This document shows positions 5,201 to 30,869 of a stretch of DNA of 38,470 bases, one piece after another. How positions within the stretch are numbered: position 1 is the stretch's first letter; each line of letters begins with the position of its first letter. A program made the position numbers and the translations under genes. Under the pieces are notes generated by a model that did not search any database, was not told the DNA's origin, and was given only the letters and a program-made list of their open reading frames with translations. Origin of the DNA: Asterionella formosa (Eukaryota); NCBI GenBank assembly GCA_002256025.1, contig NKIB01015063.1, positions 1 to 38,470 on the forward strand, written 5' to 3'.

Positions 5201-8020
5201 CTTCAAATTCTTGCATCCAATGTCAACAGTGACCATATGCAAAAAAAACACGGTTGCTACAATTTTGATTGTGAGACTCAGATGGGGATTTGTTCTTCCG
5301 AAATTTGTAGTTACACAGATAACACCATTGCAATGTCCACAGAGACATTGCAAAATTCACATGATGACAAAGTCAGGATATGAACAGGATAGAATGAAAA
5401 TGATTTAACAATAATAAATTTAGCATCACTCCTATCATGCTTTGCTGGACAATGCAGAGTCGTGAAATTATCACTCCACCATAGTAGTAAAAATGAAGGT
5501 ATACCGCTACATGAAGTACAGGCGGCACTACTAGTGTAGAGCAGCATCAGTGTTTTCTTAACATGTAAGATATGATTTGCATTGTAGAAGTCTAACACTA
5601 ACTATATTTATTATGTAAATAAGTTTGCATTGGATTCTATTGGATCCATTCAAAATCAATGTCATCATCAATGACCCATTGATTAATGCGGTCGTTGTAA
5701 TCAATATTCTTCTCAGGAACATTTGGTTGAAGTGGTTCAACATATTGATGCATCTCCTTTTCATCGATTCTTTTGTGAAAGTCCAGAGTAGATTTCCTTA
5801 CAATAGACGAGTAAATTATCAGTCCATTGATCAGTGAGACCATGGAAACTGAACTTACACACCTTTTTTGATAAGTGCTTTCCCACCAATGTCAACAAAA
5901 TCAATAGAATGACGAATATCGTTCTCTGAAATTTCATGCATATCTCGATTGAGTCCCAAATATTTTGGTTGCAATCGGAATTTTCCTTTCAGCACCAAAA
6001 AACAAAAGGCTTCTGTACTGGAATTGATCAGCGAACCAACATAACGTGATTGACATTCACACTGTGCCCGAACGCACACTCAGTTAAAATTTGGTAACAC
6101 CAGATTTGTATCCTGTTAAAAATGGTTCTCCACAGCTTGTCCTGCCTATAATATACACTGGAGCAAGAAAATCACGCCAGACTTGGTATCCTTGGCTTCC
6201 CCTGTCCATTTCCTTTGACTGCGCAAAACGATAAAGCGTCAATGCCCACCTAATAAAGTCATCAATATCCATAGTCTGGAAGTTATATTATGTTAGACCA
6301 GCTGGTGTGTCATGAATTATGTTAGCATTTTTAGATTGAAACATATTTGATAAGAATATAATTACCAACTCAAAACATCATGTTTTCAGAGCATCTCCCG
6401 CCATGCAAGAATTTACCTAAGATTCCTTTAAATTGGTTATTCAATACATTCTGACACGAGCCATTCTCTCAACTTTTTAATGCACATGCCACCAACTGGT
6501 GATTTGATGTAATCTAAATGTGCCTTATTTGTACATTCAATGGTCTGATTCATCGGAAGTAGTGCATCAGAACCATTCCATATGAAATCGGCAAGCTCTG
6601 GGTCACTCTCCAATTCTTTGCCCAACTCCGGTTTCACTGTGTATAGCCGAGTTAGGCAACATTGGGCAAACCAATCCTGTTTGTGATTGGAAATGCCTTT
6701 CATACATCTAAGCCGCGAATACGCCACTTTTCGAAATTTCGTCTACGTATGAGTGTTAACTATGTGGTACTTCACATGCATTAATGCCACTCTTCCTTTA
6801 AAAAAAAGGTTACTTTTAACGGTTTCATGTGAAGTTTTAACGGTTTCATGTGAAGTTCTCACAATGAACTTTGAACGCGAGACTGAATTAGTTGATGTTT
6901 CAAATAATTCATTTGTCTTTTCGAAATTTCGTCTACGTACGAGTGTTAATTATGGGGTACTTCACATGCATTAATGCCACTCTTCACGAAAAAAAACGGT
7001 TTCATGTGATGTTTTAACTGTTTCATGTGAAGTTTTCACAATGAATTTTGAACGCGAGACTGAATTAGTTGATGTTTCAAATAATTCATTTGAAAGTTCA
7101 ACTAAGATCCTGCTCTTGAGGCTAATACATTCACAACACGCATTTTACATAATACAATAGTAAGGATATTTGTGGTTTCTTATGTCATCCTCCATCTGAG
7201 ATCAAAGTTTTACGGTTGTACAAATCACATGAAGAACTCACATTTTCCGGTAAAAAATCTCCCTCTTCCCAGTTTTCATGTTATGTAGGTTATTACCGGT
7301 ACTAGGTAACTGTACTACTAGCCAGTGGTAGGCAACCCAATTTTTACGATATGGCGGGATGTTTGATTCTCTTTTGGGACCAGAAAGAAGCACATTAGAT
7401 TGATATTCTCTTTTACAGTAACTGCAATTCACGAACTGTAACATCAAACTTACATGTTGTTTACAGCAAAACTTCTTGGTCTTGAAAATTAAAATTAAAC
7501 TCACAACCTTTGTGACAATTGATGATGGTTCAATTTTAGCTAAGCGGGAACGACGTTCTGATAAGGCTGCTGAAATTGAAGATTCTTGATAGCCTCGTAT
7601 GAACGGGTTTTCAATCGAATTACGACCTTTGTAGTGATTGAGTTCATTGACCAATTGATAATATCCTTTGGCAAGTGCAAGATTTTTTCCCCTCCGTTTG
7701 TCATGTACTTGTTGGTCTGTGCAATTAGAAAATTCATGATATGGTACCATGTTGTCCATCTGCATCTGGGAATTATTAATGGTATTATCGACAGGAGCCA
7801 TTTTTCTTGTAGCAACAACTGAGGAAGAAATGTCATCATCGCTTTCAGTATCATCTAGGGGATCCTGTGAAGCTGATGATGGGGTAGTACCCCCACTAAC
7901 TCCCTGTCACCGATTGGGTTCCTTTGGATAATCGCCGATTCGCTTTTTCTTTGTCAACTCAATTTTGGTACTTGCTTCTTTGTTCCATACCGGCAGTATT
8001 TGCCACATGTCGCTTGTTTC
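2300..8020 (-). pseudogene. Long decayed, apparently intron-containing coding region of unknown identity; boundaries approximate
   Basis: A chain of minus-strand ORF pieces (7238-7801, 6437-6727, 6084-6272, 5855-6079, 5637-5843, 4952-5353, 4291-4572, 3699-4010) is broken by stops and frameshifts. Candidate introns lie at 7504-7436 (GTGAGT..TACAG, 69 bp) and 6365-6276 (GTAATT..CTAAC..TTCCAG, 90 bp). No recognisable domain. Confidence 0.4.
6727..7092. repeat. Two-copy tandem duplication (period 190 bp) with a nested ~21-bp sub-repeat
   Basis: Copies 6727-6915 and 6917-7092 both start CTTTTCGAAATTTCGTCTACGTA and end GATGTTTCAAATAATTCATTTG. Each holds two units resembling TTTTAACGGTTTCATGTGAAG. 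Confidence 0.95.
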
Positions 8021-9887
8021 CATGAACCTCTTTATGGTTTTTTGAAGACATTGCTTGTACTACTAGATAACTGTTGTCTTATGATCTTAAAATCAGGTGT
8101 TGCTAGCTACAATGAATTGAATCATCAGCCACTGCATGTAATATTTTTCGCTGTCTAGATATGATAACATAAGACCAACAGTGCTATTAACACTATCATA
8201 TACAAAATCACAACCGAGTTTGAGTAATAGCATATCTTGCTTTCAATTTTATGATCATATGATCTTGAAGCTATGATGATTTACAGTCCCACTGCAGTAA
8301 CAACATTCCTGAACACATGATGTTCTTTTGCTTGCTTACTACTCCAACTACCCCTACCAGGTACCAGGTCCGTCTATGTTACGCCCGATAGTACTATAGT
8401 ATGAGCATACCGGTAGAAGACATCGCTTTTAGTATCCCAACAACAACAAGATCATGCGTTTCCATCGTTATTCTAATATGAAAGGTAGACACAATTCGGT
8501 CTCTTCCTATGTACAAAGTACCTTGCTTCACGTCAGCATGTTGAAGTTAGCAGTTGCTACCTGCTACTACTGGTTCTCTTTATATACATGATAAAATGTT
8601 ATGATCATATGATGTACGCATGAAGAACTTCCGCCAAGAAGGGGCTCAAATAATTAGCTAGCAAAATCCTTGTGTATAAATAATGATGTAAATGGGTGGC
8701 GACTTACACCAATTGAATGGTCTAAATAATCAGTTCCAACGTACGTAGAAAAATTTGATGCAAACAAACTTCAGAAACAGTACCGTTACTCGAAGTCGTG
8801 GAAAACAATGGACATATCGTGCATTGAGTATTTTCGAATTATTTAAATACGAATATGATCATCTCAACAATACCAGACATGCTATATTGAGAGTGTCTTT
8901 GAATTTTATAAATGTACAACACTTCATATATTTATGTATTTACAAATTTTATAACTATATACATGGCAAATAAATTTGAAATTGCTCTGTCATGCTAGCA
9001 AACAATGCCTGCTTTGTGAAAAGAAATATCGTAGTAAAGCATATGACAAGCAAGGAAAGTTTACGCAATAACGAAAAACATTGTGGCTTTGACACATAGC
9101 GCCTTCAAAGGATGGAGTATGTTTAAGGTAATGAAGTCATCAATGTGGTATGTGGTTGACAATCGTTGGGAGGACAACAACAAGTTGTAAACTAAATGCA
9201 CGTTTCCTCAATAGCTCATTTCGCTTGTTGGGGAGCACCAATGTAAAACAAAACAAAAGTGGTAAGAAGTGCTCTTGTCGTTTGACCTATTCACTTCTGT
9301 TGGAACATAACTGACGGACACGTTTACCTTCTCTCAAAGTTAATCTAACAAAAATGAAAGTTCATTATGAATGAGAACTCAACCAACCATGACAACAATG
9401 AGATTGGATGGTAAAATTATTTAAATGTATACATAATATTTATTGAAATGTATGTTATTTATGTAGATAATTTTACTTAAGCTAAAGTTATGTTGTACTG
9501 GTAGCTACGGTGGCTACCTAATCTAGTTTCACGATGCATCACCACAGCCACATCACCGGTATGCATGGCTTTGTGTTATTGCTTGCTTCGCTCGTCTGTG
9601 AATGCAAATGCTGACGTCACAATCATTGATTGTCGTTCAAAAAATACCGGTATGTGGGCTGATGGCGGCAAGTGCATGCAGCAGAGCCGGACGAACCGAC
9701 AACCAACGTTCACTTTTTGTATGTGGCAGTTGTTTGTTTTGGATATTTCGTTTTCTCATCATCAAACGTCGGCGGCAATCAACATCCGTCGTTGCAATAC
9801 CGGTACATTCTCAACCAATACAAACACGCGCTGCAAGGCAAGACCAGCAGTGCGGCACTTGCCTCCTGAGAATCGAAATATTGAATA

Positions 9888-12800
9888 ATGAATAGAGCTC
9901 GAAAACTGTTTGGGTCGCCCTCTGCCATTAAGGCGCGCCGCGAGGGAAAGACATCGATGAGCCCCTCCCCAACCACTAAGTCAAGTAAGGAAGGCACAGC
10001 AAGTAGGAGTGATCTCGAGGTCACGAAAATGCAGGGGGAAATCAATGATCTGCGGGGACAACTTCAGTCCTGCGCAGACACTGAACTTATTCGAAGTCAA
10101 CTCATGGAGCAAGCAAAGGAAAACAAGCGAAAGGATCAGGAGCTTCGAAATCTCAACGATAAGTTTCATGAGGTCCATAAGGGACTTTTGGGGGTTGAGG
10201 AAGAGCGCCAAAGGCTCCGACTGTCCATGCAGCGGCTAGAAAACGAGAAAAGGAAAATACAATCACAACTCGACATACGAGAAAAGGAGGTATTGTCGCT
10301 TGCTCGCCGATGTTCGTCCCAAGAAGAAAAGATGAAAGAAGCTGCCAAGATGCGTGCCTCTCATGGTGATCTTTCAAATCAAGTCGAGGATTTACGAACG
10401 TCGTTATCCGCCAAGAATAAAGAAATCTTACAGATCGAACGACTTAAACAAGAATTGGAGCACTCTGAAGCGTCCAAGCAAGAGCTTCAGTTCCGACTTT
10501 CAAAACTCAAGAAGGACCATGACGATATTGCCGAAACACTTAATTCTTGCTTCTCTAGCATGCAAAAGATGACAGACAGTCACCGCGATCGTGAAGAAGA
10601 TCGGCGGCGTGAACAGCAAAGAGCCGAGTTGGACCTAGAGCATCAGCGCCTTGCGCATCTCGAAGCTACTGCTGACTTACGACGTGAACTGGAATGTCGA
10701 CAAACACGCATTGACCAAATAGAGAACATACTGAAAGAGAACATGGCAATAAGTACAGCTTTGAGAAAGGAACACGCCGATGCCACGATGATCAAAGAAG
10801 CTGCTCTATCGGCCCAAAAGCTTGAGTACGAGCAACAACTCGCAAGTTTGCAAGCGAATCACGACAGCGTCTTGGCAAGCTCCCAAGAAGATAATAAAGC
10901 ATTACTTAAGAAAGTGCAAGAAGAATTAAATGAGAAAGTCACTTTGATTGCAGCTCTCGAGAGGGAATTGTCTATTTGTATGCAGAATATGATGGCCATG
11001 TCAAGCGACTTCGAACAACTTCAGAGTGAGAATGAGAAAACAATAATTTCCCATAGGGAATCACTCTTGATTATCGAAAAAGAAATACTTTCTTTGAGAG
11101 AGCAGGCTACGTCCAATGATGTTGAGCTTACCATGATGAATTTCAAATTGTCCAATCTCGAGTCTGAGAACTCTGACTTGAGCAAGCGATTGGAAAATGT
11201 TCTCGCCCGATGTGCTGAGCTTGAAGAAGAGAACGCCTTTATAATGGACCTTGAGGAGCAGCTCTTAGAAGTTAATTATGAGATCGTTGAAACAGAAGAA
11301 GAGCAGATTATGGCTGCCGAGGAGCATCAACTGGCGATGGAGAGTCTCCGAGCTGAATATGATAACCAGCGAAGTATGTGGTCCAGCATGGAAAAAGGTC
11401 TCGTCGAAAGGTTGACTTCTCTAGAGAAAGAGAAAAATGAAATTTTAGACGAATTGAAGCGCTTCCGTGTTGCTGCAAACTCGTCGACCGCTGATCTTGA
11501 AGGTCGCTTAAAACGATCAGACGATCTCGCCCATTCCTTGAATTCTACAGTCGAAATTCTAAGAAAGGCGCTGAATGAAAAGGATGAGCGAGTGGCTGCA
11601 ATCAATGCAACTTTGGAAGGTGAACGAATGAAATCAATGAACCATGACGATATCATGTCTGCTTTGCACTTGGAAATTGAAGACCTTCGCTCTAATGTTG
11701 AAGTCCAAACGGTTGAGATGGAAAAGACTCTAGCTGAAAAGGCTATTGAGATGAGACACTTGGAAGAAGAACTTTCAAATGAACGAACTCTCCATTTAGA
11801 AAACAAAAAAAAATGTTTGAATCTTCAAGCTGAGCTTGACTTGACCAAAGATGTTTCAAAGCGAGCTCTTGACAACATGATTACTGCCGTTCAGGACAAA
11901 GACAATGAAACACAATCTCTTTTCACAGAACTGGAATATGAACGGAAAATATCAAAAGAAAGAGATATTCGCTGTCAAAATCTGGATTCGGACTTGTTCT
12001 TGTTGCGTCAAGACAATGAGAAAGTCGTACTCGAATCGAGTGTATTTGCTACAGAGAAAGAACAGACGATCGTAGCCATAACTGCAGAGCTTCGAAATTT
12101 GGAAAACGAAGTGACCAGAAAGGATGAAGATTATTGTACGAAGATATTGATAAAGGAACAAACCATTCAGCACTTGGAGTTCTCACTTAATGAGCAGCAA
12201 AATGCATTGGAGCAACTGACTTTTGAGAACCAAGCTATTATCACAGACAAAAAATTACTTTTTGAGGACCTGGAGAGAGAGAGAAAGAAGTCTGTTGAGA
12301 CCGAGTCGCGAATAAAGTGTGTAGAAGCTGCGCTGCTTAAACTTCGACAAGACGCAAAGAGCAGTACTCTTCAACTTTCTACGTCCATCGTCGAGAAGGA
12401 TCAAAAGATACAATTATTGAGTAGCGAGCTCACGAAATTACGTGAGGATTTCCGAAGGGAAGGCGATGCTCTTCGTGCCGTCATTGTGACAAGGGACCAA
12501 AGTATCATGTCCCTTCAAGAAGAACTTGACAAAAAAATAGCTTCTGTTGAACAGCTGAAGCTCTCAAAACATGTTGCATTATCGGAGAAGAATACAGGTA
12601 TCACTGTCATGCAAAATGAACTAGACGCTTGCAGGGCTAAACAGGCAAAAGACGACGAACAGAAATTCCTTTTATTACAAGAGAAAGAGAATCAAATAGT
12701 CTCCCTTAAAAACGAGATTAACATTTCAAATGAGACTTCCTTGGAGCGAAACGAAGCCAGTCGAAAAGAAATACTAAGTCTTACAAGTAAGCTTCAAAGA

Positions 12801-14129: not shown

Positions 14130-14379
14130 TATAATAATAGGCCGCAATTTGTAGATCCATTATGGACTAAATTAATAGATTGAAAATATGGCTCAGAAGA
14201 CCTCTATGGGACTGCAGATGTAGAGGATACCCAACCCAATCTTTGTTGATCAAGGTCTTCATTCCTACCAGTTGCTTGTGTATGAGAAGAAGAAGCAGCA
14301 TAAGGGCAGGTCTTAACAGAGATACAAAAATTGAAAACTGCTGCTGCTACTTCTCACCATGGCATCATTTGATTCAGAC

Positions 14380-15760
14380 AATGAAACTTATTCTGCAGCA
14401 AGGAAACAGGATGACCAGAGGGTTGCAAGTTTCACTCTTGCTGTTTTTTCATCAACAACAAAGGGTCTTTGACAATGATAAAAGACCTGTTAATTCAACA
14501 GATGTAGCTACAACAACTACATCATATTTGTGTTCACTTTAAAGTCTCTGGATACAGGAACAAGACAAAGATGATCACTTTTACACTCATCAAGAATTAG
14601 TTAAAGACTTTTGATCTTCAAGACATGATGGGGTATATATCCAACAAACCAACAAAGTCTTTGAAAAGAAATGGAGCTCCGTTTACTCCTGAATCATAAA
14701 CAAGGAAGTCTCCACACCTACTATCAAAGAAACTTTCTACCACCAGAGAAGATATTGACAATGATTCTAGTATAGATTCTGAATTATCCCTTTCCCCATT
14801 GGCTGCTTTTCAATCCCCAGTCTCTGCTGATATTTTATTGGATGAGGATGATGATTCAGAAAAGTCCCAGATTATCATTAAGAAACACAGATGACCCCCA
14901 AAGGAAAAGAAAAAAGAAATGCTGCAACTGCTCCCAAATATATTAAGAAATTTCCCCGTAAAGCTGTTTGGGACAAGTTATTACATACTTACATGGACAT
15001 AGACAATGATACAGTTGGATCCATGGCATTCAAACACAACCAGTTTGAATACCATGGAATTGATGATAACTATTCCCTCACTTCTGATATGTTGGATATC
15101 AAACAATTTTCAGAAGTTATGGAATCTCTGAATGCATATTACAAGATCTGTTTCAATAATAACAAAGTTTCTGTTCAACATGATAATTTTAACATTTTCA
15201 CTCAGAACCAGCCTTATTGTTTGTACTATCATTTATGACTTCAACAGGTGCCACATTTCTGTGCCTACGCAGTACCAAGTTTAAGTGAGGGTGTTGCTAT
15301 GGACAATCTCATTCATAATCGTGCAGAGGATGAAGTTGCCAAGCTCCCTGTTCAACGAAAAAGGGAGAAAATATGGCAGCAATGAGTTTGAAAACATGTC
15401 CAAACAAGTGGTTGAATCTTCTAAAGAATTTTCAAAAGCAAATAACTGCCGTACACAAATGACATTACCCTCTCAAAGTTCCAACAAAGGATTTGTACAA
15501 GCAAGTTTTGTTGTAAAACAAGAGAAGGAACTAATGAATCTTGTAAGTATGTACCACGAAAAGTTAAAGATGCTCAGGCTCATGAATTAGCAAGCAATGA
15601 AGTGTCACAAAACTGCTGTGCTGGTATAGAGTATCAAGAGAATGTCAGTTTTGGTGAATTTTTTGAAGCCAAACTTTTTGAAGCCATGGATGCACTGCCA
15701 AAGAATTCTGTAGCTCTAATCCGGACAGCTGAGGATGATCCTAATCATAATTATTATACT
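14380..15760 (+). pseudogene. Disrupted ORF1 (accessory or DNA-binding protein) of Harbinger-like copy A
   Basis: Frameshifted pieces ETYSAARKQDDQ, KRNAATAPKY, QHDNFNIFTQNQPYCLYYHL and a helical tail. The N-terminal half is shared with copy B. Confidence 0.6.
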
Positions 15761-15818
15761 TCTACTTTTACTTGTTATCACCTTTTTTTCTTCCAGCTAT
15801 TTTCTGTCTGTATGCATG

Positions 15819-16020
15819 CTACATAAATCCTATTTCAGTCAGCTCACATCGTCGGCGCAGCACATCAGCTGGAGGTTGCCTAAACCCATTGTTGGTGACA
15901 ACATCAAGAATATTTTGCCAAATCTGTGCAGTACCTTGTACTCCATCTAACTTCCTGACACTTGGACAATAAATCTACCCAAGAGGAGCATTGAGCATTG
16001 GATCAACAAGCTCTAATGCG
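15819..16020 (-). pseudogene. C-terminal fragment of a Harbinger-like DDE transposase
   Basis: Manual translation DPMLNAPLG*IYCPSVRKLDGVQGTAQIWQNILDVVTNNGFRQPPADVLRRRCELTEIGFM* (stop 15819-15821). It converges on ORF1 and resembles PIF transposase tails. Confidence 0.55.
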
Positions 16021-16243
16021 ATCAGAAATTCAATTATATTAGCATGTTCTTTCTTTTTTTCATCATCCATGAAAACAACGAAGAAGTAGAAGATAGGTGC
16101 ATATGTTGTTGTTGATTGTTGCATCATTGTGATTCCGTTTTGATTCTATCATTGATGATGCGATCACTCACAATTGCATTCTTGTTTTCTTTCCGCTCAT
16201 TCTCAGCTTTAAAGGACCTTCTAAAAGGAATGTATCTACAGCT

Positions 16244-16850
16244 GTGAACTCTTCCAATGTGTTGGAAATACCCTGTTCTGACATTGATAGCCCCAGCTCT
16301 GTTGATTGTCGTGACTCTGATAATTACAACAGTACTAGCACATATGATTCCGATTCAAGGTATTTGTTACCTGCTTCCATCTTTGCACCTCATGCTGGAG
16401 CTCATGCTCATCATGCTGATTCCTGGATTCTTATGTCTCACTCAACTGCCAAAGACTATGCCAATGCAATTCGATCCAGCAATAAAGTTTTCGGATCACC
16501 AAAACAAACAAACTCTATTAAAAACCTGTTGCACAACACAAGCAAATCTACCAAGTCACCACTTACCATCATGTTTTTTGAATCCCTTGTTGAGAATGAA
16601 ACCTTGAGCTCCCTTGCTTCTTTCGACAACAATGATACTGACAATGGCAACCAACCAATCATCCATAGATTCTATCTAATCTGTCGTGGGCTAAGACGCA
16701 ACTCCACCAAAGAGATCATCAACACTGCTGTACTTTGGTTCGCAACCAAATTCTTCAAGAAAAAATCGCCCCTCATCCTAAAAAGTGGCTTCGTTGCAAC
16801 GGCAATTTACCAACCAAACACCGCCAAAACCAAGCTGAAAGACCTCTTCC
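16244..16850 (+). mobile_element. Truncated ORF resembling the N-terminal core-binding region of a Crypton-like tyrosine-recombinase element
   Basis: INTAVLWFATKFFKKK followed by YQPNTAKTKLKDLF resembles the YxPxT helix that precedes the YR domain in Crypton/DUF3504-type proteins. It is cut by the LINE, and no catalytic residues are present. Confidence 0.4.
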
Positions 16851-17968
16851 ATCGACAGAAAAACACACATTCAGGTTATATTTCCAGAACATAGCTAAGC
16901 GGTCCATCTTCAACGAAATGCAAAGGATCTGGATTATTATATGGAGACAATGAAAACCTTTCAAGTCAGTTTGTACGGCTGGGCTGAGACAAATACAAAC
17001 TGGCTCAACCCAGACACGCAGCATGAATATAGAGAAAGATCCACAAGAACATTTAAAACTGCAAAGAGTGTATTTTCTACAAGCTCCATGCCATCATCAT
17101 CGCACTACAAACCTGGTGGAACAGCAACAACCCTCATAGGAAAATGGAGTGGGAGAGCAGAACACAACTCAGGTATGGGTTGTTGGAGTTACTATCTAAC
17201 TCTGAAAGGAAAGAATAATGTAGTGATCACCATTATAATGGCATATAGAGTATCACAGCTGTCCATGCCAAAAATGGGGGATATCACCACATATCATCAG
17301 GAACACGCAATGGTATGTGCAAGGCAAATGGGCATGCCAGTAGCGGCAGTGCTAGATCACTCTGAAACACTTCGCCAAATGAACTACACAGTGAAAACAG
17401 TCTATGTAATCTCAGAATATTACTACTGCGGTACTGCTTCCCATCTTCTAGCTGGAACAGGACAAGGTAGCGAAGCCTCCCCAGCAGTTTGGTTAACCAT
17501 TTGTTCAGTAATCATCAATGCTTATTGTTTGGCAGCTACAAGGAAAATGAATTTCATTGACCCCACAGGAACCATCAGGTCAGAGAGAAGCCTAGACGCT
17601 ATTGAGGATGATACTTCAGTACTAGGACTGACAGATTACCCAGGGGGAAAGCCAATGTCAGCTCTTACAATGTTCAAGCTTCTGGAAAAATGTGCACAAA
17701 CATGGCAAAATATACTATTTGCATCAGAAGGAGCTCTGGAATTAAGCAAATGCTATTATTATATGATTCAATGGCACTGGGATGCCCAGGGCTACCAAAA
17801 AATGACAGAATTCAGAAAACACCTTGACAACCCAAGCAAACACAACTTTGGCTCCGGAGAATACCAGGCCCTGAATGAAACCTCAAGCACAGATCCAATT
17901 TAAGTTTTCATAAGAAATGAATCAGTTTGGGACAGCTCAAAAGTTCTGGGAGTCCTGATCCCGGTGAA
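16845..17968 (+). mobile_element. Non-LTR retrotransposon (LINE, Ambal-like) ORF2 remnant: AP endonuclease fused by internal deletion to partial reverse transcriptase
   Basis: Endonuclease motifs TFRLYFQNI, WAETNTNW, YKPGGT, GMGCWSY, IIMAYRV. RT motifs GTGQGSEASPAVW, AIEDDTS (degenerate YxDD), AQTWQNILFASEGALELSKCYYY, then KVLGVLIP. Confidence 0.9.
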
Positions 17969-19643
17969 AAGTTAACTTCATTTATTAAGCGCCTTAAGAC
18001 TACTCAAGTGTTAGTAGGGTAGCCCGCATGGCGCTTCCTGGCATTGACAGCCTAGGTTGTATAAAAATCTTAACCTACCCAGTATCAACCAAACAAATGT
18101 GGTGACTTTGGGTGCTGCAAGGCAGGGAAATGGTGGATACACTCTCTTGAATGAGAGTAGGGGAAATTTTGTGTTGTAAATGCCATATTCTGGCACTGGT
18201 GATTTAATCTACCCCCACATCTTGATGACTGAAGAGAAGGCAGATGGCTTGGTTTGATTTTTTTAATGAGGCATTTATTTGCCTCCCATGTCTTTGCCTT
18301 GTCTTTTGTGGTATTTATGGCAGACTCTGATAATATTGTGCAGCTTTGGTTATCTGTTTGGATCAAAATGAAATGTGGTGACATGATCATCATGACTTTT
18401 CTTGCATGAATAATGCATCATATTCCAGCCACTTTGTCAAGCTCCTTGAGTTTCTTGTTGTTTCTATTGATTCTTTCATGTGTTTGTAGCTCATTGCGTA
18501 CGCTGTAGTTATTGTGTAGCTCAAAGCGCCAGCGCAGACCCGCTTCTGATGCCAGGACATTGACAAATGCACTCTTCAATTGAATGATACATGTTGTTGC
18601 ATTCCATTCATTTTCGTCAAGCTCCTTGAGTTTTTGTTGTTTCTGTTGATTCTTTCATGTGTTTGTAGCTCATTGCGTACGCTGTAGTTATTGTGTAGCT
18701 CAAAGTGCCAGCGCAGACCCGCTTCTGATGCCAGGACATTGACAAATGCACTCTTCAATTGAATGATACATGTTGTTGCATTCCATTCATTTTCGTCAAG
18801 CTCCTTGAGTTTTTGTTGTTTCTGTTGATTCTTTCATGTGTTTGTAGCTCATTGCGTACGCTGTAGTTATTGTGTAGCTCAAAGTGCCAGCGCAGACCCG
18901 CTTCTGATGCCAGGACATTGACAAATGCACTCTTCAATTGAATGATACATGTTGTTGCATTCCATTCATTTTCGTCAAGCTCCTTGAGTTTTTGTTGTTT
19001 CTGTTGATTCTTTCATGTGTTTGTAGCTCATTGCGTACGCTGTAGTTATTGTGTAGCTCAAAGTGCCAGCGCAGCCCCGCTTCCGATGCCAGGACATTGA
19101 CAAATGCGCTCATCAATTGAATGATGCATGTTGTTGCATTCCATTCATTTTCGTCAATCTCCTTGAGTTTCTTGTTTCTGTTGATTCTTTCATGTGTTTG
19201 TAGCTCATTGCATACAGTGTAGAGATTTTGTAGCAAGAGAGGTCTGATATGATTGCACAGCTGTAAATATACATCGCCCTCCATGGTGAGAGGGGGTGCT
19301 TACCAGTGCTAGTAGGATCGCTGTGATAGTACTAACTTAGTTTCTTTTGTTTACATTTGGATGCTTTGACAAAGTTATGTACTTCTGGTGATAGTAGAGA
19401 GCAGGTAGAGTAATTGATTGTTCCACAAATATTTTGTTGAGAATGACAGTCGTTCTGCCTGGACCAGCACCAAGGTCAAAAACAATGAGAGAATTGATGG
19501 CAAGTAATTTAAATTCAGGTCCAGCATCAGTAACAGAAAAGTTGGCACAATGGAGCAATAGTTTGGCAAGACAGATACTCCCTCTGTCCAATATTAGTTG
19601 CATGGAGTTTTCAAAATTTTCCGGGGCCATTTTGACTCATACG
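17969..19643 (-). mobile_element. 1675-bp insertion of an unclassified element into the LINE, flanked by a 13-bp target-site duplication
   Basis: TGATCCCGGTGAA occurs at 17956-17968 and 19644-19656. Removing the insert restores the LINE frame VLGVLIPVNNDWTDKINRL. Bases 17972-18127 are the reverse complement of 23005-23160. Confidence 0.85.
18436..19222. repeat. Tandem array of about 4.4 units of 179-180 bp
   Basis: Units start GTCAAGCTCCTTGAGTTT (GTCAATCTCC in the last) at 18436, 18616, 18795, 18974 and 19153. Inner units are essentially identical and there are no variable spacers. Confidence 0.97.
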
Positions 19644-23004: not shown

Positions 23005-23162
23005 CCCCGCGTTCCAGCGCCCAAAGTCACCATGGCTGCTGGGCTGATATCGGGATGGTTAATTTTCCAGAAAACCAAGGCTGGTAATGCCAGGAAGCGC
23101 TACGCAAGCTCCCCTACTAGCACTAGAGTAGTTTAAAAGCGCTTAACAAATGAGGTTATATA
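23005..23162 (+). mobile_element. Short (about 158 bp) truncated copy of the element at 17969-19643, with its own target-site duplication
   Basis: Flanked by AGCAATCAAAGTA at 22992-23004 and 23167-23179 (17 bp with one mismatch if extended to 22988 and 23163). The interior aligns with the reverse complement of 17972-18127. Confidence 0.85.
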
Positions 23163-23758
23163 TTGGAGCAATCAAAGTATGATATGCTATGTAATAGGTA
23201 GCATTAAGTGAGAACTAAATAAAATTGTTTTGGGTTAGAAATTGAGTAAAAAAATATCAGTTTCCATGAAGACATATGCATTGTACTAATAGAGCTTACA
23301 CAACAGACAGCATTGACATTCCATCACACAATTGAAGGACGAACTACCATGGAAAAGAAAGAGAAACCCTGAACGCAATTGAGATCTTTATTATACTATA
23401 GTGTAGCTGATGTGGGGGTCATTGGAACCATGTAAACAGCTGTTGCCTGATGGTAGAAGACAGGTAGTAGCAGTCTCCCCCAAGCTACCCTGACAATTCT
23501 ATTCTGTGTGTGATCGCCAGGCTGCTCCTCTATCAACTCCCTCTATATGATCAGCGTTTATTGATGAATAATGAATTGTAGGTTACAATAAGGAATCTGT
23601 GTAGAAAGATATCAAACCGACTTAGTACAAGAAAAGCATTGCTTGGAGGCAAAATTGACATCATGGTCAACAACTATACAAATCAACATATGTCTTCCTC
23701 AATTCTGTGTGATTCTTACATTCAAGGTTATACAATGTAAATGATGAAAAGGAATCAC

Positions 23759-24189
23759 TTGGAACATCATGTTGATTTACTGGTGAGGGATAACAAAGAA
23801 TGAATGATTTATGCAAAAAATAAATTTAAGTATTTTACATTGACAAGGCACATTTCCTTAAGCCTGTGGCCGCGATTTACATGGTTGCATCAATTTGGTG
23901 CGTGAGGATGGCGAAAACTCTGTTCTATGCATCTTCGTCATTTCTTGGATGATTCATACCTTCTTGGCATATGTTACATATGTCAACAGGAGACTTTTGG
24001 AACATGTTGGTTTACTGGTGATGGATAACAAATGAATGATAAATTTCAGTATTTTTCATTGACAAAGCTTATTTCGTTAAGGATATTGCGGCGATGTTCA
24101 CTGTTGCATCAATTTGGTTCATGAGGATGGCTAAAAGACTTTTCGTCGTATCTTGGTCATTTCTTTGCCGATTCATATCTTCTTGGCAT
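23759..24189. repeat. Old, diverged tandem duplication (about 23759-23970 and 23997-24189)
   Basis: Shared blocks in the same order: TTGGAACAT, TTTACTGGTGA, GGATAACAAA, CATTGACAA, GTTGCATCAATTTGGT, TGAGGATGGC, GTCATTTCTT, TTCTTGGCAT. Confidence 0.85.
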
Positions 24190-24420
24190 TTGACTAATAA
24201 TTTAAGGAAAAAGATATTTCGTCCCCCTCTTTTTGATAAACCCTTAAACACTACATAGCCTTCATATAATCACAAATTTGACTGCGATTCTGACAATGGA
24301 GAAGTTGACCATGATCCAGAAACGAATGAAATGGTGGCTTTTGAACACAAGGTGCTGGATATTATCGGTCCTTAAGGCCCAAGATTCACTATACTTATAG
24401 GAGTTGAAGCCGTCGCATGG

Positions 24421-25126
24421 TTGAAGAGAAAATATGAGGGACATGAGAAGAAAATTCAGGAAAATGTTTGTCATGACCAACTGACTACTGACAAAGCTTG
24501 TGCTGACAGGGACATTTACAAGTTCGATGGGATCAATATCAATGAAAGTGACAGTGATGAAAATGACAGTGACTTTGAAGGTGAAAGTGATAGTGATGAA
24601 GATGACAATGATGCCTACAGCTTGGACAGTTCCTCATCATTCCATGACGCCATGACTAATGACATTTTGTACCTACAAGATTCATCCTCATGGGTCCTTC
24701 CAGATGTTACTTCACAGTTGACTAAGCAAGCTCAACAATAAAAGGGATATGCTATATACACGGAAGTTCCAAGAACAACTACTTGACATTCTTTCAAGTG
24801 AGGAGGAGAACGACGACAATTTTATAGAAAAGAAACTACATTGCTGTGGCAAGTCGTCATGTTAAATAATGTAGGGGAGCAACAAATAAGTGCTGCTGTT
24901 AAAATTTTGGCTTGAATTCCTTGTCCAAGCAGAAGATGTATTGAACGAACACAAATGCAACAGTTATACCACATTCCTATTGGCAGGCACACTTGCCCCT
25001 GGCATGGTACCATATGTATCAGTTACCCACTTTGTCATTTTGGCCTGTTCTGATTGCCATTCATATTCTTCCTGCAACTTGCTTACTCAGAACAATCTGT
25101 CCCCAAAAGATGCCGAGAATGTGTAA
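24421..25126 (+). pseudogene. Decayed TE-like ORF remnant (acidic tract then Cys-containing segment), family not identified
   Basis: A D/E/S-rich ORF at 24421-24741 is followed by broken frames (LHCCGKSSC, HKCNSYTTFLL, VTHFVILAC) in CpG-poor DNA next to Harbinger copy B. Confidence 0.3.
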
Positions 25127-25613
25127 ATTGTTGGAAGGGCAAGCTTTTCTGTCGGAAAGTATTTCTGCTCCCAGTTCCCTCATGATTACAAGTGTTGTCA
25201 AGCCAACTGAGTTTCGTGTGGCAAAAAACATTGGTGGTGTATATGAAGGCTATGTAGGCTAGGGGTTAGGGCCAATCTTAACAGAGATACAAAAATCAAG
25301 AAATGTTTCTCGGCCCAATTTTTTGTATCTCACATATCCAGGTGATATGTTGCTTCCAGCAACACATTTTTGTTGCTCTGAAATGTGTATCTGTGTGTAT
25401 CACTGCAGATACAGCGATAAGCAACACTAATTTTATAAATTTAATATAAGTCATGTAATTAAATTAATCAACAAAGACAACATTTTTATCTCTGACGGTA
25501 ACAACAGAAATGAATTTGGGAGGAGGGATTCTCAGCAGCAATTATTATTATCTCTAGCTTCTCATGGAATAATGCTTTTCATCACTTGTAAATGACTTGC
25601 GCAATGGCATCAT

Positions 25614-26264
25614 TTGAATCTTTTGGAAAATGAAACTTACTCTGCAGCAAGGAAACAGGATGACCAGTGGGCTCCATGTAACACTCCTGCTGATTTATTC
25701 ATTGACAATGAAGGTTCTTTGAGGACAATAAAAGACATGCTCATTCAACAGATATCGCTACAACAACTTCGTCGTATTTGCGTTCACTTTAAAATCGCCG
25801 GATACAGAAAAAAAAGATGATAATGATTACACTCATTAAGAATTGGTTAAGGACTCTTGATCTTTGAGACATGATGGGGAACAACAAAAAGTCATCAAAA
25901 GAACCGATGAAGTATCTGAAAAGAAACGGAGCTCCCTTTACTCCTGAATCATCAACAAGGCTGTCTCCTCCTCGCCTAAAGAAGTATCTGAAAAGAAAAG
26001 GCTCTCCCTTTACTCTTGAATCATCAACAAGGCAGTCTCCTCGACTACTACTATCAAAGCAACTTTCTACTACTGGAGAAGATATTGCCAATGACTCAAG
26101 TACAGATTCCGAATTATCTCCTTCCCAATTGTCTGCAGTTGCATTTCCAGTTCCTGCTGATATTTTATTGGATGATGATTCTAAAAGATCCCACCAGATT
26201 ATTAAGAAACAGGGACAACCTCCCAAGAATCAGAGGAAAAGAAATGCTGCAACTGCTCCCAAAT
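25614..26264 (+). pseudogene. 5' half of ORF1 of Harbinger-like copy B
   Basis: ETYSAARKQDDQW..LQQLRRICVHFKIAGYR..KRNAATAPK. Homology to copy A stops after CTCCCAAAT at 26264. Confidence 0.65.
25909..26042 (+). repeat. 72-bp in-frame tandem duplication in ORF1 of copy B (single in copy A)
   Basis: Units start GAAGTATCTGAAAAGAAA at 25909 and 25981, encoding KYLKRNGAPFTPESSTRLSP and KYLKRKGSPFTLESSTRQSP. Confidence 0.9.
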
Positions 26265-26820
26265 TCATGCCGGCTGTACAGCAATTGTGGCGGTTATCAT
26301 TGGATGTACACTACTAACTGTTGCGAATGCTGGGGATTCCCGAGCTGTCCTTTGTAGGGCGGGTGGAAAGACGGAAGTATTAAGTTTGGACCACAAACCA
26401 CAGCAAAATCGAGAAATGGATAGAATTCACAAGGCTGGTCGATTTGTCAACCAATTTGGGCGTGTGAATGGAAACTTGAACCTTTCTCGATCCATTGGTG
26501 ATCTGAAATATAAACAAGTTCCTGGAACTTCCCCAGCAGGACAAATGATTACAGCGGAACCCGATATTTTTCAGGTGATTCTGCATCCAAATGACGAATT
26601 CATTATTTTGAGTTGTGATGGTATTTGGGATTGCCTCACTAACGAACAGGCGGTAAAATACGTGAGAGAGCGAATTGACACCAAGACGCCAGTAGAGATT
26701 GGAATTGAGATGCTTGATGAAATCATAAGTGAAGATCCTCAATCTACCCAAGGTATTGGAGGAGATAACATGACGATTATGGTTATTGATTTGCAACCGC
26801 AGCAACAAGCCTACCGGTGA
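26263..26820 (+). pseudogene. C-terminal half of a PP2C/PPM-family protein phosphatase (PPM1G-like), 5'-truncated captured fragment
   Basis: IHAGCTAIVAV, VANAGDSRAVL, LSLDHKP, GRVNGNLNLSRSIGD, ITAEPDI, CDGIWD, GGDNMT. The N-terminal metal-binding motifs (RxxMED, DGHG) are missing, there is no in-frame ATG upstream, and the fragment abuts TE ORF1 directly. Confidence 0.9.
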
Positions 26821-26941
26821 AATTTCTGTAATTAAAAGTCTCAGTAAGGTAAAAAATGTCATCATATTTGTCGAATCATTTCTGACAACGGCTGCATGCA
26901 GTAGGTAAGAACCCAATAGTATAGGGTTGGGCAGCCGTTAT

Positions 26942-27163
26942 TTAAGGATTCAGACGCTTGGGGTCACGATGGAACCAGGCTGCCTTTCGAATGTTGGGCA
27001 GCCCTAAAAATAGCATAACGACACGCTCGAGTCCAATACCTCCGCCGCCATGGGGAAGAGCACTATTACGGAACGAGTTCACATAATCCTGAATCGTCGA
27101 TACATCGATTCCCCATGCTTTGGCCCGCTTTTCCAAAAAGTCTGGGTCATGAACACGCTGAGC
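26942..27163 (-). pseudogene. DARS: C-terminal fragment of cytosolic aspartyl-tRNA synthetase, 5'-truncated captured fragment
   Basis: [44 protein letters not shown] is class IIb motif 3 plus the eukaryotic AspRS tail. The conserved FPRDP reads FHRDP here. Upstream sequence is transposase-like. Confidence 0.9.
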
Positions 27164-27169
27164 CTGCAA

Positions 27170-27484
27170 CAAAATTTCTCATCCACAAATGATGTGATGG
27201 AAGGTCAAAGGAGTTCCAGTAGTTGATTGAAAGGTTCAAGAGACATGCAATATTCATGATGAAATCTATTCTCATGAAGAAGCTTTCTTGTGACATGCTC
27301 ATTCCAGTCAATTTGTTGATGCTCCCATTTTGGAATTCGCACTGGCTTTGAGTTTTGTTCATAGGACTCCAAAAATGATAATGTAACTGCTGCAATTAAC
27401 AAAAAGCTTTGTTGTTCCACTTCTTTATCAAGATTGTCAATGACATCCCAGCCAACTGTCAGGTTCTTCCGGTCGATTTGTCAT
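27170..27484 (-). pseudogene. N-terminal fragment of a Harbinger-like transposase
   Basis: From ATG 27484, with a frameshift: ..IDWNEHVTRKLLHENRFHHEYCMSLEPFNQLLELL*PSIT. This matches the F..YRMS...F..L...L helix at the start of PIF/Harbinger transposases. Confidence 0.7.
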
Positions 27485-27608
27485 GGTCGTTACAGCAATG
27501 ATAATGGTCAGAAATGTTGAATAATTGAAGCTCACATTACAAATTTTTTTACTGAGTCTGATGCACATGTTTGCAGAGACATAAAGAAAACAGCTAACTG
27601 TTTTACCG

Positions 27609-27643
27609 TTACAGAGATATATTTGTGAAATGTATCTCTGTAA
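27609..27643. repeat. Subterminal inverted repeat (16-bp arms, 1 mismatch, 3-nt loop)
   Basis: TTACAGAGATATATTT-GTG-AAATGTATCTCTGTAA. Confidence 0.9.
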
Positions 27644-27914
27644 AGATTCATTTTTTTTCTGAAGATACAACAAAAAATAATTTGTATCTCTGCTAATTTA
27701 ATAGAGAGGGATGAAATATCGAAATAGCTAGGGCTACGAAATATCTTTTTCCTATTTTAATTACAGAGACAGCGTTTATGTTCATGGTTATGTAACTCAT
27801 AAAGCACACATTTTTTATGTAGGAGTTAGCTGACCCTCATATTGAAGAATGGTATATTTTCAACATGATCCAGCACTTGAGTCACAGCAAAACGGTGCAA
27901 ATGTTAGGAGGGAG

Positions 27915-28240
27915 CACCGGTACCGGTACCAGGTACCAGGCACCTGGTAGTCTTCCGGCTACTGGTACATACTACATACTAGATAGTTACCAGTTGCTAG
28001 ACGTTTACCGGCTACCGGTACCAGGAGAACAAGCAGAGTGCCCATGTGAGATAGCCATGCATGACCTGTTCAGTACCTCAACGCCATGGTGTTCGTATCG
28101 TTACCCGCCAATTAACAGGCGTTTCCGTTTTCGGCAAGTCGGTTGACGAACTATTGGAACAAGGCCACGGTCTTCGCGTGAAATTCAACGTGATGCCCAC
28201 TACCATAAAGATCCTTTATTAATTCATACCGGTACCAGGT
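27915..28240. promoter_or_regulatory. Cluster of TACCGGTA / TACCAGGTA motifs upstream of the PDZ-PH gene
   Basis: CACCGGTACCGGTACCAGGTACCAGG at 27915-27940, and TACCGGTA at 28013 and 28227. A regulatory role is inferred only. Confidence 0.4.
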
Positions 28241-28541
28241 AGCCTGGCATCGCTTCGGCGCTTTCGGCTGTTGCTCACGGCATATTTATTACCAGTACAG
28301 GGTAATAATATTAGCAAACGCAACCAACGGTACGATTGCAAGATCGTATATTCGATTGAGGCAAAGTAGCCGCAAGTAGCCTCGTCCCATTTCCAATCCC
28401 TTCTATTTCTCTTCCATCGTGACTATTGAGAGGTAGATTGAAAGTCTTCTCTTGCAACGCAACTCTCTATTTCGCCGTAACTTACAGTGTCCAAATCGTT
28501 TGTCACCATCCCTGTGGAAGGACACTTGAGTGACAAATAGA

Positions 28542-30869
28542 ATGTCGAATCCTTTTGATCAGTTTGCGTCAGATATTGCCGCTGCACTTCCTCCTTCGAC
28601 GCAGCCTCCTGTCTCGTATCAAAGCCAGTTTGGGGCTCCCCCTGGTCAGAACGTTCCTCCTGCGCAATATCCTAGTTATGGCGCGCCTGGTGGATATGCC
28701 GCTCAGCCTTCTCATCAACAGCCAATGACGCAGTACGGGATGCCTAATGAATCCCCCCCTCTTCAGCCAATGGGAAATGCAATTGTTCCCGCTGGAGTGC
28801 AAACAAACCCCTATGCATTGGCTGATCCATCATATGGCCAACCTCCTGCTCCATCATATGGCCAAACTTCAACTTACGGTCAACCCCCTGCTCAATCATA
28901 TGGCCAACCTCCAACTTACGGTCAACCTCCCGCTCCATCATACAGTCAACCTCCTGCCCAATCATATGGCCAGCCTCTTGCTCCATCATATGGTCAACCT
29001 CCTGCCCCCGCTTATGGTCAACCTCCTGCTCCAGCTTATGGTCAACCTCCTGCTCAGCCCATGTCAGGGCAACCTCCTGCCCAGTATGGCATACTTCCAA
29101 CTGCCGCGCCCATGTTTGACCCCTCAACAGCTGCCAATCCTTTCGGCGCTCCAGCTCCCTCTGCTGCCCCACCTCATCTACCTGCTGGTGCTGAATCCAA
29201 TCTATTCGGTGGACTAGCAGCAATTGAACCTGTGGCGGCTGCCGGTGATCCATGGGGTGCTCCACCTCCTCCAACCCCTTACGGTCAGCCCCCTGTCGAT
29301 TATGGTCAACCCCCCGCTCCATATGGTCAGCCTGCCCCGTATGGCCAACCTGCTCCATATGGTCAACCGGATGCATCATTGGGTGCTTTGGTCGTTGTAC
29401 AGTCTGCTGCCCCACCTGCACTTCCTTTAGTTGAAGATGACCCTTTTGGTGGAGTCTTCAGTTCCCCTGCACCTCCTCCAGCTCCTGCAAGGTTTTATGC
29501 TCAGCCTTCAACAGATACTTCTATAGTATCCTCGCAACCATCGGCCTTCGGTGGTGATATTTACGGCCAAAGTGCACTTGTGCCCGCTCCAGTATCCGAC
29601 CCTTGGTCTGAAATGGGCTTTGCACCTCCTGTCAGCGCTGCTGCTGCTCCTGGTAGCCAACCTGCCAACAGCGATGGTCTCTTCGATGGACCTGTTGCTG
29701 TCACTGATTCCGGGCAACGACAAGAAGGCGAGTTGCCTCCTGGTGGAGAGTGGTACGATGCCAGAATCTTTACCCCTACGCTGGGAGTCATGTTTTTCAA
29801 GCCCCAGGAGCTTACTGATTCGCTGTTTTTGAACACTGATAAAGAACTTGTCGACGGTCTTGCCGAGCGTCCCGTGGTTGCTTTCATTGTTGAGGGATCC
29901 TCTGCTCGTTCTGCCGGTGTGGAACTTGGTCATGTCTTGTTGAAGGTGAATGGTGTGGACGTCAAGAACCCCAAGGATGCATCTCGTTTGATTAAAGAAG
30001 GTCCTCGTCCCCTTCCCTTGCTCTTTTATGTCCCAAACACGCAAATTGTCGTTGCCGAGGGTGAGCATATGGTAAAATACGATACCAAGGATACGACTGC
30101 GCCGAATAGTGCCAAGGAGTGGAAACCCAAGTATGTTGTCATTGGAGGTATTATTGCCCAGCCATGGATGATAAATATGTACCGTTCTAAGGTGAGTATG
30201 TGGTTCACAGCCTAAATAATTCGGAAATTGAGCATCTCAACAAACTCTCTAACGTCAGCCTTTTTCGAACAGTCGGAATACGATATTGCTGTAATTGAAA
30301 CTCAGGCTCGACGCCCAGTATCAGTGAAAGTGAAGCAGTTCTCGTTGCAGGGAGCTCGCATCCAAAACGACTGGCAAGGACCCCAGATGGTCAAGTACAA
30401 GAATAAGCTTCATCCCTGGAAATTCATTGTCGTTCTCCCAGTTGCCAGAAACCCTATTAAGATATCATCTCCCAACCTGACCCAGCTGAAGCCTGTTCAT
30501 GATGGAATTCGTAGAGTATTGTTGGCTCAACAACGTGACCGTGGTGCGAACCCGCACATAGCAAGCCCTGTCCGTGGTGGAGATCCCTATGCAGATTCTG
30601 GCAGTTACAATAATGGTGGACCCCCTCCTGAGCGTGGTGGTCCTTATGGAAGTCAGCCTCCGCCGCCGGAACGTGATCCTTACGGAAGTCAGCCTCCTCC
30701 TCCTGAAAGATATGCTCAGCCTCCTCCACAACCTCAGTACCCTGCTCAACATCCACAGTATGGAATGCCACCGCCTCCACAGCAGTATCCTCCTCAACAA
30801 CCTCAGTACGGTGCTCCACAGCAGCAGCAACAATGGGGTGCACCGCCCCCTCAACAGTATGGCTACTAG
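28542..30869 (+). CDS. Pro/Gln/Tyr-rich protein with PDZ and PH-like domains; join(28542..30191,30273..30869), 748 aa
   Basis: Two same-frame ORFs are joined by a phase-0 intron. Features are YGQPPAP repeats, PDZ-like VVAFIVEGSSARSAGVELGHVLLKVNGVDV, PH-like KEWKPKYVVI..MYRSK|SEYD..IKISSPNLTQLKPVHDGIRRVL and a PQY-rich tail. Confidence 0.88.
30192..30272 (+). other. Spliceosomal intron (81 bp)
   Basis: AAG|GTGAGT donor, CTCTAAC branch point, TTTTTCGAACAG acceptor. Splicing removes the in-frame stop at 30213-30215. Confidence 0.9.

Follow-up and report, generated by a model that had tools for sequence, protein, structure and literature searches.

A decayed copy of a probable Pack-type PIF/Harbinger family carrying the convergent ends of PP2C and aspartyl-tRNA synthetase genes in a diatom-like alga

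Contig NKIB01015063.1 of the Asterionella formosa assembly GCA_002256025.1 was analysed over its full length of 38,470 nucleotides (the window), a nuclear-type eukaryotic sequence in which ordinary genes appear as long open reading frames (ORFs) nearly without introns. Positions 25269-27696 of the window very likely represent one decayed copy, referred to here as copy B, of a Pack-type, non-autonomous family of PIF/Harbinger transposons in a diatom-like alga, the ancestral interior of which was replaced by a 928-bp block of host DNA. The ends of copy B are those of a terminal inverted repeat (TIR) transposon family. Of the transposase gene it keeps only ~90 N-terminal codons, with a frameshift, so that no working transposase is encoded, and its interior is homologous to host protein-coding genes (Pfam families PP2C and tRNA-synt_2), for which the nearest full-length proteins are encoded by diatom genes. 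Several copies with the same junctions are present, as seen from the depth of the block in sequencing data, a contig that bridges the left junction, a second locus with the same right junction, and flanks that re-join within the repeat hosting copy B. An earlier note, made from the letters of this DNA, had proposed a transposase-less, Pack-type PIF/Harbinger element at this position; the proposal is supported both by the host-gene interior and by relatives of the transposase remnant that carry the DDE_Tnp_4 domain.

Ends, superfamily and captured block

Contigs of three DNA runs (X1, X2 and X6) and of one RNA run (X11) were aligned on 24000-29200 of the window. Copy B starts with GGGCCAATCTTAACAGAGATAC, and contigs of X1, X2 and X6 depart from the window sequence exactly before 25269 into varied flanks, in agreement with the left end given in the earlier note. 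The end motif TCTTAACAGAGATAC, a 15-mer, occurs three times in the window against 0.08 occurrences expected, and one of the three is the left end, at 14304, of a sister element (copy A). The short TIRs typical of PIF/Harbinger elements are represented in copy B by an inner pair of 16 nt (25278-25293 / 27681-27696, 94%). Canonical copies in the public contigs add a further 9 nt: after 27696 they read GATTGGCCC, complementary to 25269-25277, and then run into varied flanks. This terminal 9-mer is absent after 27696 in copy B, the sole exact match in the window being the left end itself. The right end consequently lies at 27696, where the inner part of the TIR finishes, and not at 27837, where the earlier note had placed it. 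Position 27837 was rejected as an end, the GCTGACCC found there not being a TIR and 27697-27753 belonging to the repeat, designated 'Y', that hosts copy B. The truncated right end is considered real because a 3525-nt X2 contig (record 23, from a run of a different study) spans 27696/27697 with two mismatches. The letters flanking the left end are TTA in copy B and TAA in copy A, while the flank consensus of other copies, which is noisy, reads ..CTA before the aligned A at 25268, again giving TAA. A putative TWA target-site duplication is accordingly suggested by the left flanks (TTA, TAA) only, the right end being deleted in copy B and missing in copy A. A motif search revealed five subterminal ACAGAGATAC-like motifs.

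The minus-strand ORF 27205-27480 is 63-89% identical to five database proteins, the best of which is P0121 (89%). No Pfam match above threshold was obtained for this ORF, for P0121-P0125 or for the ORF1 pieces. A search with P0121 returned 1252 representatives at E ≤ 1e-3, and PF13359 (DDE_Tnp_4, the PIF/Harbinger transposase domain) was detected in 24 of the 26 longer P0121 matches that were scanned. Of the 24, 22 are full-length, and in these the domain begins at residues 172-221 (at 322 in P0154, which is longer), beyond the stretch with similarity to P0121. Direct alignment to 27109-27474(-) was observed for 21 of the 24 DDE_Tnp_4-bearing proteins, 20 of them via residues 1-124 and P0154 via residues 173-221, which confirms the earlier assignment of this minus-strand segment to the 5' end of a transposase gene. 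In two of these proteins the C-terminal 61-85 residues also match copy A, at the transposase 3' end in 15822-16091(-) (P0154, residues 476-560 of 560; P0166, residues 371-431 of 431). Because DDE_Tnp_4 proteins align both to the copy B remnant and to the transposase 3' end of copy A, the family is, as judged from homology, PIF/Harbinger with ORF1 and transposase convergent; the DDE_Tnp_4 domain is assigned via the relatives, having itself been deleted from copy B. The transposase-family matches are split between two frames at 27452/27453. A second ORF (ORF1), which is convergent with the transposase gene, was seen in both A and B, although both copies are degraded. A query of the protein atlas with ORF1 of copy A gave a best score of 0.80 and no usable match. 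The ORF1 part of copy B also contains a 72-nt tandem duplication (25909-25970 vs 25981-26042, 62 nt aligned, 92%); its unit is single in copy A, and some X1 contigs skip 69-78 nt there.

The left junction of the block is located by copy A, which aligns to copy B with ~80% identity (blastn) over 25604-25968 and 25982-26264, the alignment ending at 14939/26264. The 19 bases to the left of this point are identical in the two copies, whereas past it copy A reads ATATTAAGAA and copy B TCATGCC. Copy A therefore continues with ORF1 where copy B switches to PP2C, as had been read from the letters before, and 13 canonical X1 contigs continue after 26264 with ATATTAAGAA.. as copy A does. A 152-nt X1 contig (record 2), aligned with 11 mismatches and 3 gaps, bridges the left junction itself. 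The codons at the left breakpoint are CAY CCN ATH CAY in orthologues, so that an overlap of 2-3 nt is possible. At the right breakpoint, 27192/27193, contig loose ends were observed and all transposase-family matches stop at 27193; nine canonical X1 contigs read ..AACATTAAC before 27193, with the minus-strand translation RPSIT/VNVVKSNASS, which is the sequence of the independently found P0121. Conversely, AspRS (aspartyl-tRNA synthetase) homology reaches 27192, with the codons for FFIRGQEIL recognisable up to the junction. As transposase homology stops at 27193 and AspRS homology runs to 27192, the host block comprises 26265-27192, i.e. 928 bp. The block at 26263-27170 described in the earlier note is thus retained with revised limits. 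In total, contig loose ends mark four boundaries, leading into varied flanks (25269), canonical ORF1 (26264), canonical transposase (27193) and the canonical TIR end (27696).

Within the block, the ORF 26206-26820(+) matches PF00481 (E 4.2e-53, profile positions 90-248 of 255). The PP2C frame is open from 26265 to the stop codon at 26818-26820, and the fragment aligns with residues 383-576 of a 576-aa diatom PP2C (P0001). The frames of ORF1 and PP2C differ, so there is no in-frame fusion. The AspRS-type fragment on the opposite strand, 26942-27178(-), matches PF00152 (tRNA-synt_2; class II, Asp/Asn/Lys-type) with E 1.6e-13 over profile positions 235-306 of 308, and corresponds to the last 87 residues of cytosolic-type AspRS (residues 497-583 of 583 and 539-625 of 625 in the full-length ORFs of two related loci, L023 and L028). 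The 121-bp spacer noted previously lies exactly between the two stop codons. No further part of the PP2C or the AspRS gene, N-terminal or other, was found anywhere in the 38.5-kb window. The PP2C fragment is devoid of the first 89 profile positions, which hold metal-binding motifs; phosphatase activity is not expected from it, nor would either gene fragment be expected from its sequence to have a protein function. Because the spacer and two opposite-strand gene ends are included, the data support copying of the block as DNA and not as cDNA, in line with the single genomic block envisaged in the earlier note. The order of features given there, from the transposon left end through the ORF1 5' half, PP2C, spacer, AspRS and transposase 5' end to the transposon right end, was likewise recovered.

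Amplification, decay and insertion site

The copy number of the block was approached through contig depth on the aligned region; summed contig depth is not a copy number, and the following values serve as rough ratios only. The single-copy flank has a depth of 418 in X1, 163 in X2 and 6.4 in X6, and the transposon arms reach 162,000-344,000, 5,900-12,400 and 57-332, respectively (196,000-344,000 for the left arm in X1, against the 418 of the flank). The host block (summed over 26262-27131), including its non-coding spacer, shows 28,797-51,863 in X1, 750-2,301 in X2 and 37-58 in X6. The spacer bin 26784-26957, with a depth of 35,306 in X1, is multi-copy like the coding parts, and at the variant sites listed for the block a letter other than that of the window was carried by 11-36 different X1 contigs per site. 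The ends of single-copy housekeeping genes would not give this pattern. The earlier note had implied a one-off event at this locus, which was not borne out: the chimera belongs to a mobile family in which the block was already in place when amplification took place, as evident from the block depth and from the second locus described below. Contigs of the RNA run X11 cover every bin of the region, the presence of a contig not being equivalent to transcription.

Metagenome contigs scanned with the PP2C fragment returned 80 loci. A single one of these, L002 from another assembly, is a near copy of the block, the other 79 being orthologues with 49-79% protein identity. L002 is 93.4% identical to the window over 989 nt, from 26291 through the spacer, AspRS and the right junction into the transposase remnant. 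Its bases 1-119 match neither the window (Harbinger arm, PP2C) nor any locus fetched, and its left junction sits 26 nt inside the block relative to that of the window; this left part may represent a later rearrangement or a chimeric low-coverage contig. Between the window and L002, PP2C differs by 23 substitutions (530 nt), the spacer by 7 (121 nt) and AspRS by 17 (251 nt). Of the PP2C codons that differ, 6 show synonymous and 17 non-synonymous changes. In L002, moreover, a premature stop interrupts PP2C and a frameshift disrupts AspRS, and the TGA codon of the AspRS remnant in the window is CGA in L002 and CAA in orthologues. By sequence, the differences between the two copies appear compatible with neutral decay. 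A Gly to Arg change in the motif AGGF, at a residue invariant in 12 diatom orthologues, is common to the window and L002. Because both copies have this change, either they go back to a single captured ancestor, or Arg is already present at this position in the parent gene.

Copy B resides in the repeat Y, the two parts of which (Table 1) are recognised from inverted repeats. A 24-nt terminal inverted repeat (24205-24228 / 27730-27753, 92%) is accompanied by an 18-nt subterminal one (24251-24268 / 25240-25257, 100%), and the reverse complement of 24237-24277 aligns to 25230-25268, the left flank of copy B, as does that of 24198-24244 to the right flank (Table 1). The two flanks of copy B thereby map to adjoining positions of a Y arm, and because they do so, the chimera is judged from the alignments to have arrived as one unit at a TTA inside repeat Y.

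Several further repeats surround this site. The ends of repeat Y are very high-copy (X1 depth ~100,000 at 24174-24347), and contigs elsewhere join the Y end 24205 to the Harbinger positions 25462 and 27657; since such contigs join their sequences, the Y and Harbinger families seem often to be nested in each other. Beyond Y, 27754-28001 is also high-copy (X1 depth 46,000-71,000) and rich in GGTACC/ACCGGT palindromes. A tandem array at 18422-19234 has a period of ~179 nt and ~4.5 units that are 92-97% alike, with a minus-strand open frame that repeats one ~60-residue peptide. Two dispersed inverted repeat pairs with 74-77% identity (3103-3567 vs 23239-23691; 17973-18127 vs 23005-23158) indicate that several other repeat families are present in the window. 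Copy A breaks off at ~16091, within the transposase 3' end, and is followed by long plus-strand ORFs (16133-16894 and 16899-17903) that gave no Pfam match; an unrelated insertion at 16092-17903 may be the cause of this truncation.

Table 1. Coordinates of copy B, its captured block, its host repeat and the sister copy in the window
Feature	Position	Strand	Basis or remark
Sister copy A, diverged (~80%), truncated autonomous-type relative	14304..16091	+	left end, longer ORF1 region (+), transposase 3' end 15822-16091 (-)
Repeat Y, left part, host of copy B	24205..25268	.	inverted repeats
Putative target-site duplication TTA, left	25266..25268	.	read from letters
Left terminal inverted repeat, GGGCCAATC + TTAACAGAGATACAAA	25269..25293	+	94% pairing with 27681-27696
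Left arm: TIR, subterminal ACAGAGATAC motifs, ORF1 5' part	25269..26264	+	match to copy A
ORF1 5' part in copy B	ATG ~25871 to 26264	+	within left arm
Host block, 928 bp	26265..27192		PP2C (+), spacer, AspRS-type (-)
Captured PP2C fragment, last 185 codons + stop	26265..26820	+	PF00481 match
121-bp intergenic spacer, captured along with both gene ends	26821..26941	.	between two stop codons
Captured AspRS-type class II tRNA synthetase fragment, ~last 83 codons + stop, in-frame TGA 27179-27181	26942..27192	-	PF00152 match
Transposase remnant, ~first 90 codons, frameshift near 27452, no DDE domain	27193..27480	-	89% identity to P0121
Right arm: transposase remnant + truncated TIR (inner part 27681-27696, outer 9 nt missing)	27193..27696	-	
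Repeat Y, right part	27697..27753	.	reverse complement of 24198-24244 aligns to 27707-27763

Origin of the chimera and alternative explanations

A canonical element of this family would have the order TIR, ORF1 (+), transposase (-), TIR. In the ancestor of the Pack-type copies, the 3' part of ORF1 and the transposase beyond its first ~90 codons would have been replaced by one 928-bp genomic piece, derived from a locus where PP2C and cytosolic-type AspRS genes end tail to tail. The sequence downstream of PP2C extends for 600 nt or more in 33 related contigs. Five of these have an AspRS C-terminus there in opposite orientation, at a distance of 74-2,176 nt between the PP2C and AspRS alignments; complete or near-complete AspRS ORFs (571-625 aa) were found in three of the five, and PP2C ORFs of 511 and 730 aa in two. 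The other 28 do not have the AspRS C-terminus there; many of these are short, and we suspect some of being transcript-derived or more distant. Because the convergent arrangement occurs in these five contigs, the captured block appears to mirror a native tail-to-tail PP2C/AspRS locus of the lineage. The nearest full-length PP2C relatives in the protein database are 81-83% identical, all named ones being from diatoms.

The most economical route would require one event, in which an autonomous copy excises and the gap is repaired from a sister copy, with DNA synthesis jumping to the PP2C/AspRS locus and back. The product of such a jump would have both ends, the 5' parts of both transposon genes and 928 bp of host DNA; an origin of the chimera through gap repair is therefore plausible. 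The chimera would subsequently have been moved in trans by the proteins of autonomous relatives, as suggested by the retention of the ends and of the five subterminal ACAGAGATAC-like motifs, and would have multiplied to many copies. In summary, we infer both the mode of capture and the mobilisation in trans of the Pack element. Copy B would have landed at the TTA in repeat Y; the outermost 9 nt of the right TIR would have been deleted afterwards, a loss that probably makes copy B immobile.

The composite could also have arisen from two neighbouring Harbinger copies inserted in the PP2C and the AspRS gene, the inner ends of which were deleted and the outer ends of which moved the composite. This route has been proposed, and documented for a maize Pack-PIF cluster, in the relevant passages of PMC8903248; the Harbinger family is very abundant here, which makes neighbouring insertions plausible, and both arms are oriented as the model requires. 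However, it calls for two insertions and two deletions, each of the latter ending in a transposon gene and removing an inner TIR, as opposed to the one event of gap repair, and the two arms complement each other exactly within one canonical element. We regard it as unlikely, while noting that the data do not decide between gap repair and neighbouring insertions, favouring neither decisively. Far less probable is that the block was never captured, and that the window shows a native PP2C/AspRS locus broken by two independent transposon insertions. The convergent gene order is indeed native in relatives, and in the window the PP2C frame has stayed open between 26206 and the natural stop. Against this, all three DNA runs show multiple copies of the block together with its spacer, and the sequences on either side of the whole unit adjoin one another in repeat Y. 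The upstream parts of both genes are absent from the window, the AspRS remnant contains an in-frame TGA, and the right junction recurs in L002, a second copy in which a premature stop and a frameshift are present. A mis-joining of repeat reads with gene reads in the assembly deserves even less credence. The region is repeat-rich and nested, and no single listed contig spans the whole element, yet a diverged copy in X1 (record 2) reads across the left junction, the right junction is found also in L002, from an unrelated assembly, and the truncated right end is crossed by the 3525-nt X2 contig of a different study.

Several observations nevertheless weigh against the interpretation of copy B as an amplified Pack-type PIF/Harbinger chimera. 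No Myb-like domain was detected in ORF1, Pfam at E ≤ 0.1 yielding two sub-threshold chance matches only, and the target-site duplication is unreadable on the right of copy B because the right end is deleted. No host donor locus was found among the 80 metagenome loci or in the protein database, and no PP2C above 83% identity, i.e. neither the parent nor Pack copies, among the longer and similar-length proteins of the latter. Such silence of the database would be odd if dozens of copies exist, although fragment ORFs that have no start codon may have gone uncalled. Gap repair is favoured on grounds of parsimony only, and any microhomology at the breakpoints could be assessed only against the sequence of the donor. 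L002 is unlike the window to the left of 26291, and the left junction is hence not common to the two copies. Neutral decay is read from a raw count on one copy pair, with no formal dN/dS estimate, and the excess of the block over the single-copy flank varies between runs (70-120x in X1, 5-14x in X2 and 6-9x in X6).

Relation to known elements and implications

Host gene fragments inside TIR transposons are well known from the Pack-MULEs of rice and other plants, which belong to the Mutator superfamily, have 9-bp duplications and long TIRs, and often combine several unlinked loci. The family described here resembles them as a TIR transposon with host gene fragments that are mostly pseudogene-like, with no transposase and with probable movement in trans; it differs in superfamily and in carrying one contiguous block. 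Internally deleted derivatives of Ac/Ds and the P element may contain filler DNA, usually short, which is attributed to interrupted gap repair after excision. The likeness to these lies in the retention of both ends, the loss of the interior and the presence of foreign DNA at the deletion junction, the difference in the nearly 1 kb from two genes and in the subsequent amplification of the derivative. To our knowledge, the capture and shuffling of gene fragments by cut-and-paste transposons is documented almost entirely in plants.

Pack-type PIF/Harbinger elements are on record from maize and rice, where they have TTA/TAA duplications and form clusters exceeding 100 members (Gisby and Catoni 2022, PMC8903248). 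As far as the passages on these Pack-PIF elements go, the present family agrees with them in being non-autonomous and amplified as a cluster, with family TIRs, putative TTA/TAA targets, no working transposase and a piece of host coding sequence. The captured piece is, however, 928 bp here against 163 and 58 bp in the maize example given there (PMC8903248). The family further differs from the maize and rice elements, as these are portrayed in the same passages, in its diatom-like algal host, in the capture of two convergent gene ends with their spacer, and in the substantial remnants of both transposon genes. Harbinger-like transposons are known in diatoms, their presence and abundance being reported for Thalassiosira pseudonana (Maumus et al. 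2009, PMC2806351); superfamily and host group are the same as here, and gene-carrying derivatives go unmentioned in the passages of that paper on these transposons. A paper on diatom MULEs mentions Pack-MULEs, in its passage on this class, only to exclude it (bioRxiv 10.1101/2023.01.02.522487). No description of a gene-carrying Harbinger or other Pack element in diatoms was found in full-text searches, which did not extend to subscription journals.

A regulatory consequence of the arrangement is conceivable, in that the amplified family has the 3' ends of two essential genes, in many copies, flanked by the ORF1 and transposase promoters, both of which face inwards. Transcripts reading through from either side could pair as double-stranded RNA, and small RNAs produced from it to silence the transposon would also match the host PP2C and AspRS mRNAs. 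This we consider very improbable. If true, the transposon could influence the dosage of host genes, or the host would have grounds for tolerating the transposon.

As the block is contiguous and both of its junctions are fixed to the base, the case is unusually easy to interpret and could serve to test the route of capture once the donor locus is known. For genome annotation the family is a warning, in that dozens of PP2C and AspRS 'gene' fragments in such genomes may be transposon cargo and not members of a gene family. An amplified Pack-type Harbinger in a diatom-like alga would extend gene-fragment capture by such transposons to stramenopiles.

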